Positions 25,047 through 29,939 are shown, counted from the stretch's first letter. The stretch: 64,000 nt of DNA from an uncultured Candidatus Saccharibacteria bacterium (GCA_964407015.1 CAYOTX010000001.1:1708-65707), one strand, 5' to 3'. Program-made: numbers and translations. The notes: generated from the letters alone by a model not told the origin.

Positions 25047-25095
25047 ATTTTTATTTTAACATGTAGCGTGCTATAATCGTAACATTAACAATTTA

Positions 25096-25184
25096 ATATC
25101 AAGAAGGGGCGAGGGAACGGCCTGGTGACCCCCTACCAACCTAGCTAGACCAAGGTGGTAAATCCGACCAGAAAGGAAAGATAT
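25096..25184 (+). promoter_or_regulatory. SAM riboswitch (SAM-I superfamily)
   Basis: ATATCAAGA..GAGGGAACGGCC..TGA.CCCC..CAACC...AAGGTGGTAAATCC...GATAT directly upstream of metK. Confidence 0.9.
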
Positions 25185-26145
25185 GTTCTATAGAACTGCG
25201 GAGAGCGTTTCTCCGAAACACCCAGATAAATTATGTGACCAAATAAGTGATGCGATACTGGATGCGTATTTTGAAAAAGATCCAAATGCGCGCGTAGCGG
25301 CAGAGGCTTGTGGCGGGCACGGCGTAGTGTTTGTAACTGGTGAGATTACATCTGAGGCGGATGTGGATATTCCGGCCATAGTGAAACGAATTGCCGGAGA
25401 TGGCATAGAGGTGCATACCAAAATTGTGAAGCAGTCGCCAGAAATTGCGCAAGGCGTAGATACTGGTGGGGCGGGCGATCAGGGCATAATGATAGGCTAT
25501 GCGTGTGATGAAACGCCGGAAATGTTGCCGCGCGAAGTAGTGCTGGCACGTCGGCTAAACCAGTATATATATGAAAAGTACCCATTTGATGGCAAAACGC
25601 AGATTACAATAGCGCCAGATGTAAGTATTGATTCTATTGTGGCGAGTTTTCAAAATGCACCACGTGAAGAATTAGAGAAATTAGTGCGAGAATTTATAGA
25701 AAAGGAAAAGTTGACTGGGAAGTTAGAACTGCATATTAATCCGGCTGGGGATTGGCAACAAGGTGGCTTTGATGCGGATACGGGTCTGACCGGGCGGAAA
25801 CTAATAGTAGATAACTATGGGCCACGGGTGGCGATAGGTGGAGGATGCTATTCTGGTAAAGATCCATCTAAGGTGGATAGGAGTGCAGCGTATATGGCAC
25901 GGCGAATTGCGGTGAATTATTTAAGAAAACGCAAGGCGCATGAAGTGTTGGTGCGGCTAGCATATGCGATTGGCTATGCTGAACCTTTGGAAAAAACGGT
26001 AATCGTAGATGGTAAAGCTGAGGAAATAGAAGGATACGATCTTACGCCAAATGGAATTATAAAATATTTGGATTTGAAGCGACCAATTTACGAAAAAACT
26101 GCGCGGTGGGGGCATTATGGCGAAGGGTTCGACTGGGATAAATAG
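25183..26145 (+). CDS. metK: S-adenosylmethionine synthetase (compact form)
   Basis: AESVSPKHPDKLCDQISD, GAGDQG, DTGLTGRK, GKDPSKVDRSAAY. Confidence 0.97.
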   Translation: MFYRTAESVSPKHPDKLCDQISDAILDAYFEKDPNARVAAEACGGHGVVFVTGEITSEADVDIPAIVKRIAGDGIEVHTKIVKQSPEIAQGVDTGGAGDQGIMIGYACDETPEMLPREVVLARRLNQYIYEKYPFDGKTQITIAPDVSIDSIVASFQNAPREELEKLVREFIEKEKLTGKLELHINPAGDWQQGGFDADTGLTGRKLIVDNYGPRVAIGGGCYSGKDPSKVDRSAAYMARRIAVNYLRKRKAHEVLVRLAYAIGYAEPLEKTVIVDGKAEEIEGYDLTPNGIIKYLDLKRPIYEKTARWGHYGEGFDWDK

Positions 26146-26151
26146 TTTTTA

Positions 26152-26180
26152 AAAAATCGTCTCGAAAGAGACGATTTTTT
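26152..26180. terminator. Bidirectional terminator
   Basis: aaaaaatcgtctc-gaaa-gagacgatttttt. Confidence 0.85.
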
Positions 26181-26194
26181 GATTGTCGCATGAT

Positions 26195-26224
26195 TGGTGG
26201 GGGTTAATTAACCAGGTTTTAACA
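26195..26224 (+). repeat. Motif M, copy 1 (cassette boundary)
   Basis: TGGTGGGGGTTAATTAACCAGGTTTTAACA, identical to 27155-27184. Confidence 0.85.
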
Positions 26225-26274
26225 TGTTACAAAAATGAGATACGAGATAATTTGATTATTTATATCTCGAATAA

Positions 26275-26943
26275 CTAGTTATTAATATTTTTGATACCAA
26301 CTTCTGGAATCATAACATCCGCAGGAGTGTCGATAATAAAACGAATCAGACGAGCAACTTCTTTAGTATCAACTCCGTTAGCCATATTCTTTTCAATGTT
26401 TAGTTTCTTAAACATATCGATCTTCATCATTCCCGGCATAACATCGGTGACTCGAATGCCGTATTTTGCGAGCTCGTCTTGAAGGGATTTCGTAAAGCCA
26501 GTAACTCCCCATTTTGTAGCATTATAGACCACGCGTTCTGCTTTGTGATTGATGCCAGCTTGAGAATTAATATTGATAATTAATCCGTCGCCGTTTTTCT
26601 TCATTTCTGGAATAACTGCCTTGGAGCAGTTTATTACGCCGAGTAGATTTACTTTGACTACTGCTTCAATACGATCAACATCGTTTGTGCCTAGTTCTTC
26701 CTGAATCCATAAGCCAGCGCAATTAATAAGAACATCAATCTTGCCAATTTTTTCTGTAATTGTTTTAACGGACGCGTAGTTAGTCACGTCACAAACATAG
26801 TAATCGCAACCTGCTTCACCGGCGACATCTTTTAACTTCGCTTCATTAGTCGCAAGAATGGTAACTTTATTATCTTTTGATAAATTTTCGGCTAAGGTTT
26901 TACCCAAGCCATCACTACCGCCAGTTATAACAATGCTTTTCAT
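26275..26943 (-). CDS. SDR-family oxidoreductase
   Basis: TGGSDGLG, NCAG, YNATK. Confidence 0.9.
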   Translation of the reverse strand: MKSIVITGGSDGLGKTLAENLSKDNKVTILATNEAKLKDVAGEAGCDYYVCDVTNYASVKTITEKIGKIDVLINCAGLWIQEELGTNDVDRIEAVVKVNLLGVINCSKAVIPEMKKNGDGLIININSQAGINHKAERVVYNATKWGVTGFTKSLQDELAKYGIRVTDVMPGMMKIDMFKKLNIEKNMANGVDTKEVARLIRFIIDTPADVMIPEVGIKNINN

Positions 26944-26989
26944 TTTTAATACCTTTGATAACTTACTGCAATTATATCATAAAAACTCC

Positions 26990-27184
26990 GGACCAAATTG
27001 TGGGGGATTTAACAGACGAAATTATAGAAGTAAATTATAATTTTTGGCATATTTTTGCCTAAAAAATGGCATAAAAAATACCCTCTATTTTTATGAGGGA
27101 TTTAACAGACATTCATAGATTACGAAATAGTTGAAAAACATTCTATAACCTGAATGGTGGGGGTTAATTAACCAGGTTTTAACA
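26990..27184 (+). repeat. Repeat R1 (~165 bp) joined to motif M, copy 2
   Basis: Aligns along its length with 29686-29852; contains two GGGATTTAACAGAC direct repeats. Confidence 0.85.
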
Positions 27185-27228
27185 GGTTATAGAGAAGATT
27201 TATATCAAAAAATGGTATAATAGTATAT

Positions 27229-27633
27229 ATGGAAAAGACATTTGATTTCTTAAAAAACCGAACCAAAGTTAATTTTGTATCGACCATCGATGGTGACAAG
27301 CCCAGTTGTCGTCCTTTTGGTGATCCAATTCTTTTTGATAATCATATATACGCTCTGACGAATGCTAAGAAAAATGTGGCCAAGCAGATTGCTAAGAACA
27401 ACAGTGCCTGCATAGTGGCTTATGACGGCGAAAACTGGATTCGCATCAATTGCCAAATGATTGACGAAAGCAATAATATTGAAGCCAAGAAGGCTATTAT
27501 CGCGGAATTCGATTGGGCGAAAGAAGCCGGCTACACCTTAGATGCTCCAGATTTTGTTCTCTATCGTCTAGCTAATGCAAAGTCCACTATTTACGACGAA
27601 GACGGCAAAATATTAGCAGAGGAAGAGTTCTAG
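27229..27633 (+). CDS. Pyridoxamine 5'-phosphate oxidase-like flavin-binding protein
   Basis: VSTIDGDKPSCRPF...K.V.KQI..N pattern. Confidence 0.75.
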   Translation: MEKTFDFLKNRTKVNFVSTIDGDKPSCRPFGDPILFDNHIYALTNAKKNVAKQIAKNNSACIVAYDGENWIRINCQMIDESNNIEAKKAIIAEFDWAKEAGYTLDAPDFVLYRLANAKSTIYDEDGKILAEEEF

Positions 27634-27828
27634 AGATTTAACGGAGAGACAATATTCTTAATAGCCTAATACCGGCCATGAGCAGGAGATATACTAGTTC
27701 AGAGGCCTTCCGTTTACAGGGGTAGTAATTGACATTTTTAGGAAAGTGTGCTATAATTATGTTAGCGGTAGGTATTTTGATGACCGTGAATCATTTACAT
27801 AGTCTGATTTAAAAAGGAGGGGGTCTTT

Positions 27829-28938
27829 GTGAGGCCTACAATTGTAGCACAAAAAATTGACGAGGTTGACCTGCACATCACTCGCATATGCAACGGGCGC
27901 TGCCCGTATTGCTATGTCGATGATGGTGGCGAAAGCAACCCACTGTTCGAGCGGTTGCCGCAATTTGGTGAGACCGCAACCCTAAAGAAGATTATCCAAA
28001 ACATTCGAAATGCGGCAGCAGCGGAAAACCTTGTGTTTGTCGGGGGTGACCCTTGTCAACATCCCGATTTAGCCGAGTTGCTCCGCTTTGCCAGCGAAGA
28101 TGTTGGCGGTATGGCTGTTTGCGTTCTATCCAACACGCACCTCTACAAGAAAAATGGGCAGTCTGTCCCGATCGAAACCATCGTGCCCTACGTTTCAGAG
28201 TTGGATTTTACCCTGCACGGGATCGGTACGGCACATGATGCGATTAATGGTAACTGCGGTGCCTACGAGCATGGGATGCGTCAGCTGAAGGCCTATATGC
28301 GGGCTCGCGGCGATGCTGACAAAGGTGTGGCCATTGTGCTCAATTTTATTCCGTATACCATGCAGCATATCGAAGAGATAATGAGGAGCGTAATCATGGA
28401 GCTGCAGATGGATCCTCAGCGCGACTACTTCATGGTCCAGAGGATTGCAAAAACCGGACGAGCCTGCAAAAGCTATAACCGATGGATGATCCAGCATGAC
28501 CTGCTGGTAAAAGCACTGGGTACGATTGAAGTTATCAACCGTGAACTGGGCTTCGAAACGAAGCTTGATGCCGTGGACGCATTTCCCTGGTGTGCTATTC
28601 CGGAACAATACAGGTACATGCTGACTCCCGGTGGCTGTAAATGGGGCCGTCCCGGCGGAGTCCTCTCTGTGGTTCAGAACGGTGGCATCCAGAGGTGCGC
28701 ATTGAGTGAAAGGATTTTGGGCAATTTCCTTGAGATTGATATGCCTGAGACTTTTACTCAATTCATGACGGAAAATCCGGTGCTGCAGCAGTTTCGCGCA
28801 CATCGGCACCTGGATTTAAAGTGTCTGCCCTGCAATCTGTTGGATAAGTGCGGTGGCGGTTGCGTGATTGCGGCCGGTGGGGGTGACCCCTACAAGAACG
28901 ATACCGTTCGCACTGGTCACGATTATCTCGCAGATTAA
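27829..28938 (+). CDS. Radical SAM protein with SPASM-like C-terminus
   Basis: CNGRCPYC, GGDP, C-terminal C..C....C.GGC; visibly higher GC than neighbours. Confidence 0.9.
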   Translation: MRPTIVAQKIDEVDLHITRICNGRCPYCYVDDGGESNPLFERLPQFGETATLKKIIQNIRNAAAAENLVFVGGDPCQHPDLAELLRFASEDVGGMAVCVLSNTHLYKKNGQSVPIETIVPYVSELDFTLHGIGTAHDAINGNCGAYEHGMRQLKAYMRARGDADKGVAIVLNFIPYTMQHIEEIMRSVIMELQMDPQRDYFMVQRIAKTGRACKSYNRWMIQHDLLVKALGTIEVINRELGFETKLDAVDAFPWCAIPEQYRYMLTPGGCKWGRPGGVLSVVQNGGIQRCALSERILGNFLEIDMPETFTQFMTENPVLQQFRAHRHLDLKCLPCNLLDKCGGGCVIAAGGGDPYKNDTVRTGHDYLAD

Positions 28939-29118
28939 CAAAAACGCCGCGCCCATTTAGGGCGCGGCTCTTTCATATTAAGGGAAATTGAGGTAGCTAA
29001 TCATGTTTGTACGGTGATGAGAGGTGGATGAACCTCGCTTCGCTCGGTGCGAACCCCGGGCTCGAGCCTGCATCTATCAGAAATTAAATAAAGAGCCTGT
29101 GGCTCTTTCTCCAATTTC

Positions 29119-29148
29119 TGGTGGGGGTTAATTAGCCAGGTTTTAACA
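29119..29148 (+). repeat. Motif M, copy 3
   Basis: TGGTGGGGGTTAATTAGCCAGGTTTTAACA (1 mismatch to the other copies). Confidence 0.85.
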
Positions 29149-29203
29149 ATATATAGAGAAAGCTTGCGAGAAAGACTAAAAGTACTGTATACTATAAATA
29201 GTA

Positions 29204-29683
29204 TGAATAATCCTACAAATAATGCAGCTGGACGTTTTAGAACTATAGCCGCGGCGCTCGTGTTGCTAACGAGAGAAACTGAAGATGGAACTGAGTATCT
29301 TTTGCAAAAAAAGACAAAACACTGGTTTTGCTGATGGCATGTGGGATTTTTCGGCTTCTGGACATGTAGAAAAAGATGAACCGATGGCTGCAACGGTGTG
29401 TCGTGAAGCCAAAGAAGAAGTTGGCGTTGATATTTTACCAAATGATATTGAGTTTATGGGGTTACTACACTCTTTTGGCGACGATGGCGAACCAAGATTT
29501 TTAGGTTGTTTTAAAGTAAATAATTATTCTGGTGAGATAAAAATAGGTGAGCCAGAAAAAATTGCAGAGCTAAAGTGGTTTAACGAAAATAATTTACCAG
29601 ATAACATTATAGATTCACGAAAGAAGGCGCTTGATAGATTTAAAAAAGACGGAGTTTTTTATCAAGAATTTGGTTGGGATTAA
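29204..29683 (+). CDS. NUDIX hydrolase (start uncertain)
   Basis: WDFSASGHVEKDEPMAATVCREAKEEVG Nudix box; the ORF-track ATG at 29285 gives an N-terminus that does not look like NUDIX, so an upstream start near 29204 or a frameshift is possible. Confidence 0.7.
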
Positions 29684-29685
29684 TT

Positions 29686-29852
29686 GGGCCAAATAGTTGG
29701 GGATTTAACGGATGAAATTATAGAGGTAAAATATGGTTTTTGGCATGTTTTTACCGCAAAAAACAGCATAAAAATAACCCTCTATTTCTGTAAGGGATTT
29801 AACAGGCATTTATAGGTTACGGAATAGTTGAAAAAACATTTCATAAACCGTT
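29686..29852 (+). repeat. Repeat R2 abutting the tRNA-Leu 3' end
   Basis: Homologous to R1 (26990-27154). Confidence 0.85.
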
Positions 29853-29939
29853 TGGTGGGCGAGGAGGGACTTGAACCCTCACGACCTTGCGATCACAAGA
29901 TTTTGAGTCTAGCGCGTCTACCAGTTCCGCCACTCGCCC
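29853..29939 (-). tRNA. tRNA-Leu(CAA)
   Basis: GGGCGAGTGGCGGAACTGGTAGACGCG...CT-CAA-AA...long variable arm...GTTCAAGTC...CCCACCA. Confidence 0.95.

Follow-up and report, generated by a model that had tools for sequence, protein, structure and literature searches.

How do single genes come to be stacked, one behind another, at the end of a tRNA gene when no recombinase lies among them? The question is raised by a 64,000-nucleotide stretch of DNA from an uncultured gut Candidatus Saccharibacteria bacterium (hereafter the window), in which an initial annotation, made from the sequence alone, described small gene cassettes next to a tRNA-Leu gene and proposed that they are integrated in tandem in an integron-like manner, with a tyrosine integrase as the enzyme. 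Saccharibacteria have genomes smaller than 1 Mb with few recognized mobile elements, and their acquisition of accessory genes is for these reasons largely obscure.

Organization of the tRNA-Leu(caa) array

The segment 26195-29852 is best read as three non-autonomous mini-elements inserted one behind another at the extreme 3′ end of tRNA-Leu(caa). The features of the region are as follows:

25093-25187: SAM riboswitch upstream of metK (Rfam, 55.6 bits)
25183-26145, plus strand: metK, the conserved left flank (Pfam S-AdoMet synthetase N, M and C domains)
26151-26194, plus strand: metK terminator hairpin and original chromosomal side of the attachment site (B half-site), read from the sequence
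26195-26224, plus strand: core copy 1 (TGGTGGG, 26195-26201) and M arm (P′ half-site), the distal boundary of the array
26195-27154, plus strand: cassette 1 (960 bp), with M, SDR gene and R arm
26275-26943, minus strand: SDR gene (Pfam adh_short, 2e-48)
26985-27154, plus strand: R arm copy a, decayed and homologous to the terminal ~165 nt of a large serine recombinase (LSR) gene (P half-site side)
27155-29118, plus strand: cassette 2 (1964 bp), with core and M, PNPOx-like gene, GATTTAACGG remnant, radical SAM gene and R2
27155-27184: core and M of cassette 2
27229-27633: PNPOx-like gene (Pfam)
27829-28938: radical SAM gene (Pfam; 51.6% GC)
28939-29118, plus strand: R2, the alternative left arm of cassette 2, a ~180-bp repeat
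29119-29852, plus strand: cassette 3 (734 bp), with core and M, split NUDIX gene and R arm copy b
29119-29148: core and M of cassette 3, with one mismatch
29164-29334 and 29285-29683: NUDIX gene in two pieces, split by a frameshift (Pfam NUDIX)
29684-29852: R arm copy b, right end of cassette 3
29853-29939, minus strand: tRNA-Leu(caa) (ARAGORN; Rfam tRNA, 56.7 bits)

Each of the three cassettes is delimited by the core and M on one side and by R or R2 on the other, and their contents (an SDR gene; PNPOx-like and radical SAM genes; a frameshifted NUDIX gene) agree with the initial description, from which the frameshift was absent. The view of these units as separate cassettes, each 0.7-2 kb long, that follow one another at the tRNA 3′ end and share a short crossover core with one conserved arm on each side, was also upheld. 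None of the four cassette genes encodes a recombinase domain (Pfam), and genome-wide recombinase searches returned none in the window, in agreement with the reported lack of a recombinase between metK and the tRNA.

The tRNA-Leu(caa) gene is encoded on the minus strand and ends in CCCACCA; in reverse complement, these last 7 nt (29853-29859) read TGGTGGG on the plus strand and constitute the fourth core copy and the B′ half-site. The empty site is found in two relatives (G004 and G031), in which the metK terminator directly abuts TGGTGGG-tRNA-Leu(caa); in G004, the homologous flank ends in ...gattgtcaa followed by TGGTGGG-tRNA, matching the 26151-26194 side in the window.

Core sequence and flanking arms

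TGGTGGG is present at the four positions first reported (26195, 27155, 29119 and 29853), and by itself it is common within the window (18 matches vs. 4.4 expected). The 30-mer TGGTGGGGGTTAATTAACCAGGTTTTAACA, comprising the core and M, occurs exactly three times in the window (0 expected by chance), without mismatches at 26195 and 27155 and with one at 29119, and the 23-nt M arm described after these three core copies was thereby recovered. The R repeat reported before 27155 and 29853 was found at about 26985-27154 and 29684-29852. It is about 165-170 bp long, its two copies are 82-83% identical (23 transitions, 11 transversions and 2 gaps), and R copies were recovered in repeat families D2, D3 and D5. 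The two GGGATTTAAC motifs in each R copy, GGTTTTAAC in M and the R-like GATTTAACGG remnant (27636-27645) located between the PNPOx-like gene and the radical SAM gene are likewise present.

Further copies of M and R in this genome (G000) are located on contigs C12 and C14. The R2 arm, which was overlooked initially, contains the terminator of the radical SAM gene, a further hairpin and a fossil 3′ fragment resembling tRNA-Val(tac). Its 90% copy at C12:26113-26297 is likewise followed by core and M, and an R2-like end adjoins tRNA-Val(tac) in genome G054 and in run X6.

Full-length elements and the large serine recombinase

Membership of R and M in a larger degraded island or prophage had been named as a finding that would speak against the initial reading, and they do belong to a larger element: R and M represent the opposite ends of elements of 10-15 kb, in which the last gene encodes an LSR. 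An intact full-length element of 13 kb is present in this genome at tRNA-Val(tac) (C14:708-13691), with a TGGTGGG core. It begins with M and finishes with an LSR gene (C14:11988-13757), whose product contains Resolvase (PF00239), Recombinase (PF07508) and Zn_ribbon_recom (PF13408) domains and is related to SPbeta SprA/YokA (2e-11) and to the A118 and TP901-1 integrases. The LSR ORF crosses the arm and the core into tRNA-Val(tac). LSR orthologues, 49-57% identical, were detected in ten other genomes, and in all eight cases where the fetched contig includes a tRNA, the ORF continues into that tRNA (Gln, Pro or Leu). An M-like arm lies 10-15 kb from the LSR gene in G153 (14.8 kb element) and G134 (9.7 kb element), whose core is changed to TGGCTGG, matching tRNA-Gln, as opposed to TGGTGGG at Val and Leu tRNAs. 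In three independent full-length elements (C14, G153 and G134), each bounded by attL and attR with a short target-matching core, M is linked to the LSR and the tRNA, and the core changes along with the tRNA targeted.

The R arm aligns collinearly with the 3′ ends of the LSR genes from C14 and G005, R arms translate to the LSR C-terminus in many loci, and the left boundary of R is the same beside unrelated cargo. Judging from these alignments, the R arms are decayed LSR 3′ ends. In-frame stops are present in both R arms of the window and, together with the frameshifted NUDIX gene, suggest decay. The three cassettes possess both att arms (M and R in cassettes 1 and 3, M and R2 in cassette 2) and no recombinase of their own, and they are cut-down relatives of the 10-15 kb LSR-driven mobile element.

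Alternatively, the cassettes might be inserted and excised by a tyrosine integrase whose gene lies elsewhere, perhaps the host Xer protein, acting on a 7-bp overlap and on the GGGATTTAAC repeats as arm-type sites. The core is indeed 7 bp long, tRNA 3′ ends are a classical target of tyrosine integrases, and GGGATTTAAC is repeated in R and related to the motif in M; moreover, GGGATTTAAC is kept in two reading frames of the LSR tail and therefore looks selected at the DNA level. However, the single PF00589 match in this genome is an Xer-like protein that is conserved in 20 of 20 genomes tested, whether or not cassettes are present, and none is located near the arrays. In addition, no tyrosine recombinase gene occurs in any of 83 M-bearing loci, and in the full-length elements delimited by M and R, the recombinase encoded at the att-proximal end is an LSR. 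A tyrosine integrase as the mover is thus very unlikely, and interpretation of the GGGATTTAAC repeats as lambda-type arm sites is not supported, since R is the decayed 3′ end of an LSR gene.

Distribution of M sites and the cassette pool

A search of this genome and its relatives for M and R, as the initial annotation had recommended, revealed a large and diverse cassette pool. The M consensus was derived from 117 sites (80 listed of 91 matching genome-contig stretches, plus three stretches of the present genome), and all M-bearing records among the matches listed are Ca. Saccharibacteria/Nanosyncoccus MAGs. Wherever the fetched stretch included a tRNA, M always faced its 3′ end, and only TGGTGG(R) is common to the element end and the tRNA. 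At least 8 different tRNAs are used, including Val-tac (18 sites), Val-cac (12), Leu-caa (11), Met (5), Ala (5) and others such as Ile. Among the M-bearing loci, 89 closed cassettes were identified (median length, about 950 bp), 72 of which contain a single ORF of at least 100 aa; the ORFs of the closed cassettes form 75 clusters. The cargo consists of very diverse accessory genes for enzymes, membrane proteins and proteins of no known function, including NUDIX hydrolases, SDRs, methyltransferases, NifS/NifU, a CAT-family acetyltransferase and HopA1-like proteins. Cassette orientations are mixed (63:25), and because both occur, the genes presumably use their own promoters. Overall, tRNA-anchored stacks of one-gene cassettes are present in roughly a quarter of the species of one gut genus. 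Fixed gene content between the repeats in relatives had been named as a finding that would speak against cassettes; the content varies among relatives, so this objection fails and the cassette reading stands.

Arrays of single-gene cassettes without a recombinase and with very diverse cargo are also what a true integron or CALIN would offer, in which IntI recombines attC-type folded sites, and the integron-like platform proposed at first holds as a functional analogy. It does not hold for the enzyme or the sites: no IntI-type integrase was found in this genome (PF00589 search) or in the 83 M-bearing loci, and no attC-like folded site was detected at the junctions by flank complementarity or ssDNA folds. 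Flank complementarity equals that of permuted pairs (4.56 vs. 4.48 ± 0.09), no hairpin is common to the junctions (an 11-bp stem surrounding M at 27155 is absent from the other copies), and the conservation lies in the sequence of the M arm and not in folded structure. Given also that cassettes are inserted in both orientations, presumably with their own promoters, and that tRNA genes serve as the anchor of the array, a true integron or CALIN is effectively refuted.

Recurrence of cassettes in other species

All three cassettes have counterparts elsewhere. Cassette 1 recurs core-to-core (positions 1-954 of 960) at tRNA-Ile(gat) in another species (L130) with about 88.5-88.8% identity, compared with only about 68-68.5% for core genes. 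Cassette 2 is 90% identical over 1781 nt to a unit in the tRNA-Val(tac) array of another species (L116), in which the neighboring sequence common with the present genome (itself cassette DNA) shows about 77% identity; in addition, a 96%-identical copy is present in other gut metagenomes, with different neighbors on both sides. Full-length copies of cassette 3, 80-81% identical, are located at tRNA-Val(tac) (L127 and L094) and tRNA-Val(cac) (L026), and its identity of 81% compares with 65-69% for other common sequence. Intact NUDIX orthologues of 157-158 aa are encoded at L026 and in a tRNA-Val(tac) array (L031). With core-to-core units at different tRNAs of other species and an empty site in relatives, these comparisons indicate that the cassettes move as units and cross species boundaries.

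It could be argued that each cassette is the in-place remnant of a full-length LSR element that suffered a deletion of its middle part and never moves itself. The R arms are pseudogenized LSR 3′ ends, as such remnants would have, the deeper cassettes of some arrays (L116) contain degenerate cores and M sites, and many M-positive genomes lack a cognate LSR. Nevertheless, independent deletions would hardly account for core-to-core units with identical internal deletion boundaries at different tRNA genes in different species, for recurring units that are more similar than core genes, or for a left boundary of R that is identical beside unrelated cargo. The highly diverse accessory cargo, among whose annotated genes no LSR-element backbone genes were found, also argues against in-place decay, which we consider rather unlikely as an explanation for the arrays.

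Regarding direct traces of excision, neither a circular R-core-M junction nor another excision product was seen in the assembled contigs of public runs. One apparent back-joint in these contigs was rejected as a 34-nt promoter-like similarity.

Proposed mechanism of cassette mobilization

The cassettes are likely to be non-autonomous, LSR-dependent elements, analogous to SCC/psi-SCC and to the Dehalococcoides ssrA islands. In the parent element, the LSR ORF runs through the int-proximal R-type arm and the 7-bp core into the tRNA, with M as the int-distal end, and the attP of the circular form is accordingly R-core-M. Recombination of this attP with attB (flank-core-tRNA) inside TGGTGG(G) is predicted to yield flank-core-M...R-core-tRNA, which is the order seen in the window. 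The mini-cassettes have lost the recombinase; what they keep is M, a single cargo gene under its own promoter and, as R or R2, a decayed 165-bp remnant of the LSR gene. They could be excised and inserted in trans by the LSR of a resident or visiting full-length element; a candidate resident source is the element that this genome carries at tRNA-Val(tac), whose core is likewise TGGTGGG. Successive insertions at one tRNA may build the array, in which older units decay. We infer the trans-mobilization by an LSR, the position of the crossover inside the core and the way in which arrays are built. To our knowledge, canonical LSRs carry out attP × attB recombination only, and tandem arrays need recombination with hybrid sites, which goes beyond this reaction.

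A close LSR orthologue (>50% identical) is missing from most M-positive genomes, and no LSR above the Pfam cut-off was found in G027, G054 or G051, the last of which has only a sub-threshold match. Many cassettes may therefore be immobile relics at present. The persistence of cassettes in genomes without a close LSR could also mean that another recombinase, or a helper phage or plasmid function outside these assemblies, moves them and that the LSR link is historical only. Several types of left arm occur (R, R2, R3 or a bare hairpin), which implies a loose requirement on that side and would suit such a mover. In contrast, M is absent from 2.9 million viral contigs, and the three full-length elements tie M to the LSR and the tRNA with a core that follows the target, making a mover other than the LSR improbable.

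Comparison with known systems

No description of this system was found in the literature searched, the coverage of which was incomplete. LSR-dependent cassettes would most resemble SCC/psi-SCC, in which a large serine recombinase acts on one chromosomal target, the 3′ end of a conserved gene, the att sites consist of degenerate half-sites around a short common core, elements are stacked in tandem into composite islands, and many att-bounded units lack a recombinase and are thought to depend on one in trans. The likeness concerns mechanism and architecture only, as SCC is integrated into rlmH (orfX) by Ccr, whereas the targets here are the last 6-7 nt of several tRNA genes. Moreover, most of the present units comprise a single gene and about 0.6-2 kb, whereas tens of kb are reported for SCC elements (a composite island with three elements is 40 kb; preprint 10.1101/336396); the left arm here is a stub of the recombinase gene itself, and the host is an ultra-small CPR bacterium.

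In the Dehalococcoides ssrA islands, the gene for DsiB, a serine recombinase of ~540 aa, adjoins the att site, the islands are arranged in tandem and bounded by direct repeats of the ssrA 3′ end, about half lack the integration module, and they are a major source of strain-level accessory genes (McMurdie et al. 2011, PMC3146451). A serine recombinase beside att, a tRNA-like 3′ end as target and tandem units, many without an integration module, are thus common to both systems. The Dehalococcoides direct repeat is 20 bp long with insertion in the T-loop of ssrA, and the islands carry operons and are around 12 kb where a size is given (vcr islands) (PMC3146451), whereas mostly single-gene mini-cassettes with a 7-bp core at the CCA end of at least 8 tRNAs are found here.

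Integrons and CALINs likewise contain arrays of small, mostly single-gene cassettes without their own recombinase, drawn from a very diverse pool and differing in content between relatives. Unlike them, the present arrays have neither IntI nor folded attC, their cassettes are inserted in both orientations and presumably self-promoted, the likely enzyme is a serine and not a tyrosine recombinase, and the docking site is the end of a tRNA gene and not attI. The tycheposons of Prochlorococcus are also tRNA-targeted, cargo-carrying integrative elements of streamlined genomes, in which later insertions push older elements into the island and leave degenerate remnants and partial tRNAs. However, tycheposons encode their own integrase (a tyrosine recombinase in 910 of 937 and an LSR in the rest), often carry replication genes and are flanked by longer partial tRNAs (bioRxiv 10.1101/2020.12.28.424599). 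The units described here lack an integrase, the duplication of the tRNA is limited to 7 nt, and their parent elements use an LSR.

CIMEs are cis-mobilizable elements of Streptococcus thermophilus that have ICE att sites on both flanks. These and other MITE-like elements resemble the present cassettes in being bounded by the att arms of an autonomous partner, lacking recombination genes and accumulating in tandem with the partner, by which they are presumed to be mobilized in trans. They differ in that the partner of CIMEs is a tyrosine-integrase ICE, and the units here are far more numerous and diverse, with a recombinase-gene stub as an arm.

Implications for Saccharibacteria

We tentatively suggest that Ca. 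Nanosyncoccus possesses an integron-like platform for gene capture and exchange that is built on LSRs, although we would not yet favor this broader reading. Such a platform would comprise a pool of self-expressed single-gene circles, each equipped with M and with a remnant of the recombinase gene, which LSRs would load, shuffle and unload in trans at the CCA ends of at least 8 tRNA genes. If LSRs do move the cassettes, the system would be a serine-recombinase counterpart of the integron and would provide a natural set of short att sites together with LSRs that target tRNA ends. If the platform reading is true, it would represent the main route by which these tiny genomes obtain accessory genes.

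Anatomy of the array at tRNA-Leu(caa)

The 7-mer TGGTGGG, the complement of the CCCACCA end of tRNA-Leu(caa), stands at 26195, 27155, 29119 and 29853, and divides the DNA between metK and this tRNA gene into three cassettes. The window contains the 7-mer 18 times, and by itself it is unremarkable; the combination of this core with the 23-nt arm M, the 30-mer TGGTGGGGGTTAATTAACCAGGTTTTAACA, occurs exactly three times, against zero expected. Direct reading, motif counts and gene and tRNA calls bore out the layout of core, M, arm R and genes described in the initial annotation, which had missed the left arm of cassette 2 (R2). The features are as follows.

Left flank: metK with a SAM riboswitch
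25093-25187: SAM riboswitch directly upstream of metK (Rfam RF00162, 55.6 bits)
26275-26943, minus strand: SDR gene (cassette 1, 26195-27154)
27229-27633: PNPOx-like gene, a weak assignment (cassette 2, 27155-29118)
27829-28938: radical SAM gene (cassette 2)
28939-29118: R2, left arm of cassette 2
29164-29334 and 29285-29683: NUDIX hydrolase gene split by a frameshift (cassette 3, 29119-29852)
29853-29939, minus strand: tRNA-Leu(caa) (Rfam, 56.7 bits)
Right flank: sortase gene

The arm R (~170 bp) lies upstream of 27155 and 29853, and its two copies are 82-83% identical, differing in the alignment by 23 transitions, 11 transversions and 2 gaps. R2 has a copy on contig C12 of the source genome, which is 90% identical and likewise followed by core and M, and it contains a tRNA-Val(tac)-like 3′ fragment (ACGGTGATGAGAGGTGGATGAACC), referred to here as a fossil. 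The R2 motif GAACCTCGCTKCGCTCGGTGCGAACCC was found again in the same genome (contig C2:7216-7282), downstream of tRNA-Arg(tcg) and between an 18-nt direct repeat of the 3′ end of that tRNA, an arrangement suggestive of a further integration scar.

In each of the three M copies of the window, which read TGGTGGGGGTTAATT, position 9 is a G, whereas orthologous cassettes in other species have ..GGGGCTTAATT. This common G hints at homogenization, or concerted evolution, of the M copies within the array. The frameshift in the NUDIX gene lies in an A-run near 29306-29313 and recurs in contigs assembled independently from the source sample (record 5 of sequencing-run contig set X1). Intact orthologues of 157-158 aa are present in two relatives (G027 and G046); the cassette 3 copy has either become a pseudogene or contains a slippage site.

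Insertion at tRNA genes and distribution of M

In two related genomes (G004 and G031), TGGTGGG and tRNA-Leu(caa) come straight after the metK terminator. This is an empty site, and therefore the 3.66 kb at 26195-29852 was inserted exactly at the core.

Within the genus, 9 of 61 genomes have M-like sites; across 40 other genera of the order, no such site was detected. A pattern scan for M over one genome per prokaryotic species returned 91 stretches, 80 of which were listed; all 80 belong to metagenome-assembled genomes of Ca. Saccharibacteria or Ca. Nanosyncoccus, mostly from ruminant gut. The same pattern had no match in 2.9 million viral contigs, on which ground the idea that M is a phage attP was rejected.

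Searching the genome and its relatives for M and cataloguing the enclosed genes, as had been proposed, yielded 117 M sites and 89 closed cassettes among the matches listed (80 loci) and three stretches of the source genome. In these loci, wherever a tRNA gene lies within the fetched stretch, M faces its 3′ end from the opposite strand; the tRNAs faced are Val-tac (18), Val-cac (12), Leu-caa (11), Met (5), Ala (5), Val-gac (2), Ile (2) and Phe (1). The only sequence common to M and these tRNAs is TGGTGG(R). The possibility that M is a degenerate tRNA 3′ half was also considered and rejected, as only its first 7-10 nt match a tRNA end. The tRNA-Ala genes at M loci read TGGTGGAGCA or TGGTGGAGT, not TGGTGGAGCT, the textbook 3′ end of Escherichia coli tRNA-Ala.

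The cassette pool and its movement

A cassette was considered closed if it was ended by the next M or by a tRNA gene. Among the matches listed and the source-genome stretches, the 89 closed cassettes range from 563 to 4428 bp (median about 950 bp), and 72 of them contain a single ORF of at least 100 aa. Their ORFs fall into 75 clusters and occur in both orientations (63:25), and their left arms are of type R, R2 or R3, or consist of a hairpin alone. The cargo is made up of accessory genes, many of which encode enzymes, including NUDIX, methyltransferase-HD, peptidase S51, NifS with NifU, SDR, DHH, 2-hydroxyacid dehydrogenase and serine hydrolase proteins. One cluster is a chloramphenicol-acetyltransferase-family protein (Pfam CAT, 2e-27) and another a HopA1-like protein (Pfam HopA1, 1.3e-08), found at loci L076 and L131 of other Nanosyncoccus genomes; two more clusters look similar to the HopA1-like one. 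In the source genome, the tRNA-Val(tac) locus (C12:23460-27058 plus C14:1-13768, the contig join being assumed) holds at least four M-bounded units, with NUDIX, SnoaL, 2-hydroxyacid dehydrogenase and methyltransferase genes among them, as well as a 13-kb element.

Comparison of cassettes and their surroundings suggests that the units move. Cassette 1 recurs core to core at tRNA-Ile(gat) of another species (954 of 960 nt, 88.8% identity), where a flanking core gene is 68.5% identical. Cassette 3 is present at full length at tRNA-Val(tac) and tRNA-Val(cac) with 80-81% identity, the core genes at these loci showing 65-80% (65-69% at L127 and up to 80% at L094). Cassette 2 lies in a tRNA-Val(tac) array with 90% identity, and the neighbors shared there with the source genome show about 77%, these neighbors also being cassette DNA, which matches the C12 array. 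A cassette 2 copy with 96% identity, present in independent gut metagenomes, is flanked by other sequences to its left and right, and R2-core adjoins tRNA-Val(tac) there. Decayed cores were observed in older cassettes deep within arrays. Between two relatives (L029 in G054 and L031 in G046), the tRNA-Val(tac) and tRNA-Thr(cgt) genes each have opposite orientations, the flanking genes being otherwise collinear.

Two unusual joints in sequencing runs were also inspected. A back-joint 29153->27194 (X6, X7 and X8) was rejected as a circle of cassette 2: in a 4737-nt X8 contig, it consists of about 34 nt of shared promoter-like sequence after M, followed by a different neighbor. A joint 27137->29839 (X1 and X7) has a shorter side of only 21-25 nt with extra letters between, and probably represents another strain with R beside the tRNA gene rather than proof of excision.

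A large serine recombinase and its elements

The initial annotation had attributed integration to a tyrosine integrase. The source genome encodes a single PF00589 protein, which is Xer-like; this protein scores about 150 bits in each of the 20 genomes tested and is the sole tyrosine recombinase in seven of the nine M-positive genomes, and no tyrosine recombinase was detected near M in 83 M-bearing stretches. A nearby or genome-specific tyrosine integrase, of which these searches gave no example, was rejected, and the proposed mechanism gave way to a large serine recombinase (LSR).

A Resolvase-domain search of the source genome identified two LSRs. The first (C14:11988-13757; Resolvase, Recombinase and Zn-ribbon domains) is related to the SPbeta SprA, A118 and TP901-1 integrases and is the last gene of the 13-kb element, which starts with M at C14:708 and also carries genes for an EcoRI-type methylase, a GmrSD-HNH nuclease and an ADP-ribosylglycohydrolase. 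Its ORF extends across an R-type arm and then the core into tRNA-Val(tac). Ten other genomes supplied orthologues (49-57% identical), and in all eight loci whose contig extends to a tRNA gene, the LSR ORF continues into that gene (Gln, Pro or Leu). M-like arms lie 14.8 kb (G153) and 9.7 kb (G134) from the LSR, with the core TGGCTGG matching the tRNA-Gln end, and in G134 a 1.1-kb mini-cassette is stacked outside the full element. At tRNA-Pro the core type is TGGTCGG. The full-length LSR elements have backbone modules in common. In alignments, the R arms of the window are collinear with the last ~165 nt of LSR genes; R arms in many loci still translate to the LSR C-terminus, and the window copies have in-frame stops.

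The second LSR (C10:7428-8984) is ~25% identical to the first, and its ORF enters tRNA-Trp(cca); LSR elements of this lineage may, as a rule, read into the tRNA that they target. Next to tRNA-Gln(ctg) lies a pseudogene fragment of an LSR C-terminus (C13:17365-17688; 54% identical, three stops), left over from a Gln-targeting member of the first LSR's family.

Relationship to known systems and a proposed mechanism

The idea of an integron-like platform for gene capture was supported in part: the tandem stacking of small cassettes at a tRNA 3′ end and the large, diverse cassette pool agree with it. With neither IntI nor attC present, the likeness to integrons is purely functional. An attC-like or hairpin site, prompted by inverted repeats on either side of M at 27155 and 29119, was rejected. 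Flank complementarity over 114 junctions equals that of permuted pairs, and folds of the junctions showed no structure in common. Separately, an Rfam search of M and R gave no known RNA family, the matches being only tRNA and the SAM riboswitch. The perfect 10-11 bp inverted repeat CTATAACCTG/CAGGTTATAG that brackets core and M (27141-27194) belongs to a single junction and is not shared by the family.

Tycheposons carry genes for integrases of their own, most of them tyrosine recombinases (10.1101/2020.12.28.424599). The closest known systems are the SCC/psi-SCC islands, which use LSRs and form tandem arrays with ccr-less units (PMC13739063), and the Dehalococcoides ssrA islands, which use the LSR DsiB and lie in tandem at the 3′ end of ssrA, the integration module being absent from half of them (PMC3146451). 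No description of LSR-linked, tRNA-anchored cassettes in Saccharibacteria was found in the part of the literature that could be searched.

We propose that the circular form would carry attP as R-core-M, and that crossover with attB (flank-core-tRNA) within TGGTGG(G) would generate the observed flank-core-M...R-core-tRNA, array-internal junctions being R-core-M. The motif GGGATTTAAC occurs twice in R and, in a related form, once in M. Where the LSR tail is intact, the two copies of the motif lie in different reading frames, and therefore it looks to be selected at the DNA level. Array building would need recombination with hybrid sites, of the kind accepted for Ccr recombinases acting in composite SCC islands (PMC13739063). 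The mini-cassettes would be non-autonomous derivatives that retained both arms, and a shared core could allow the LSR element resident at tRNA-Val(tac) to act on them in trans.
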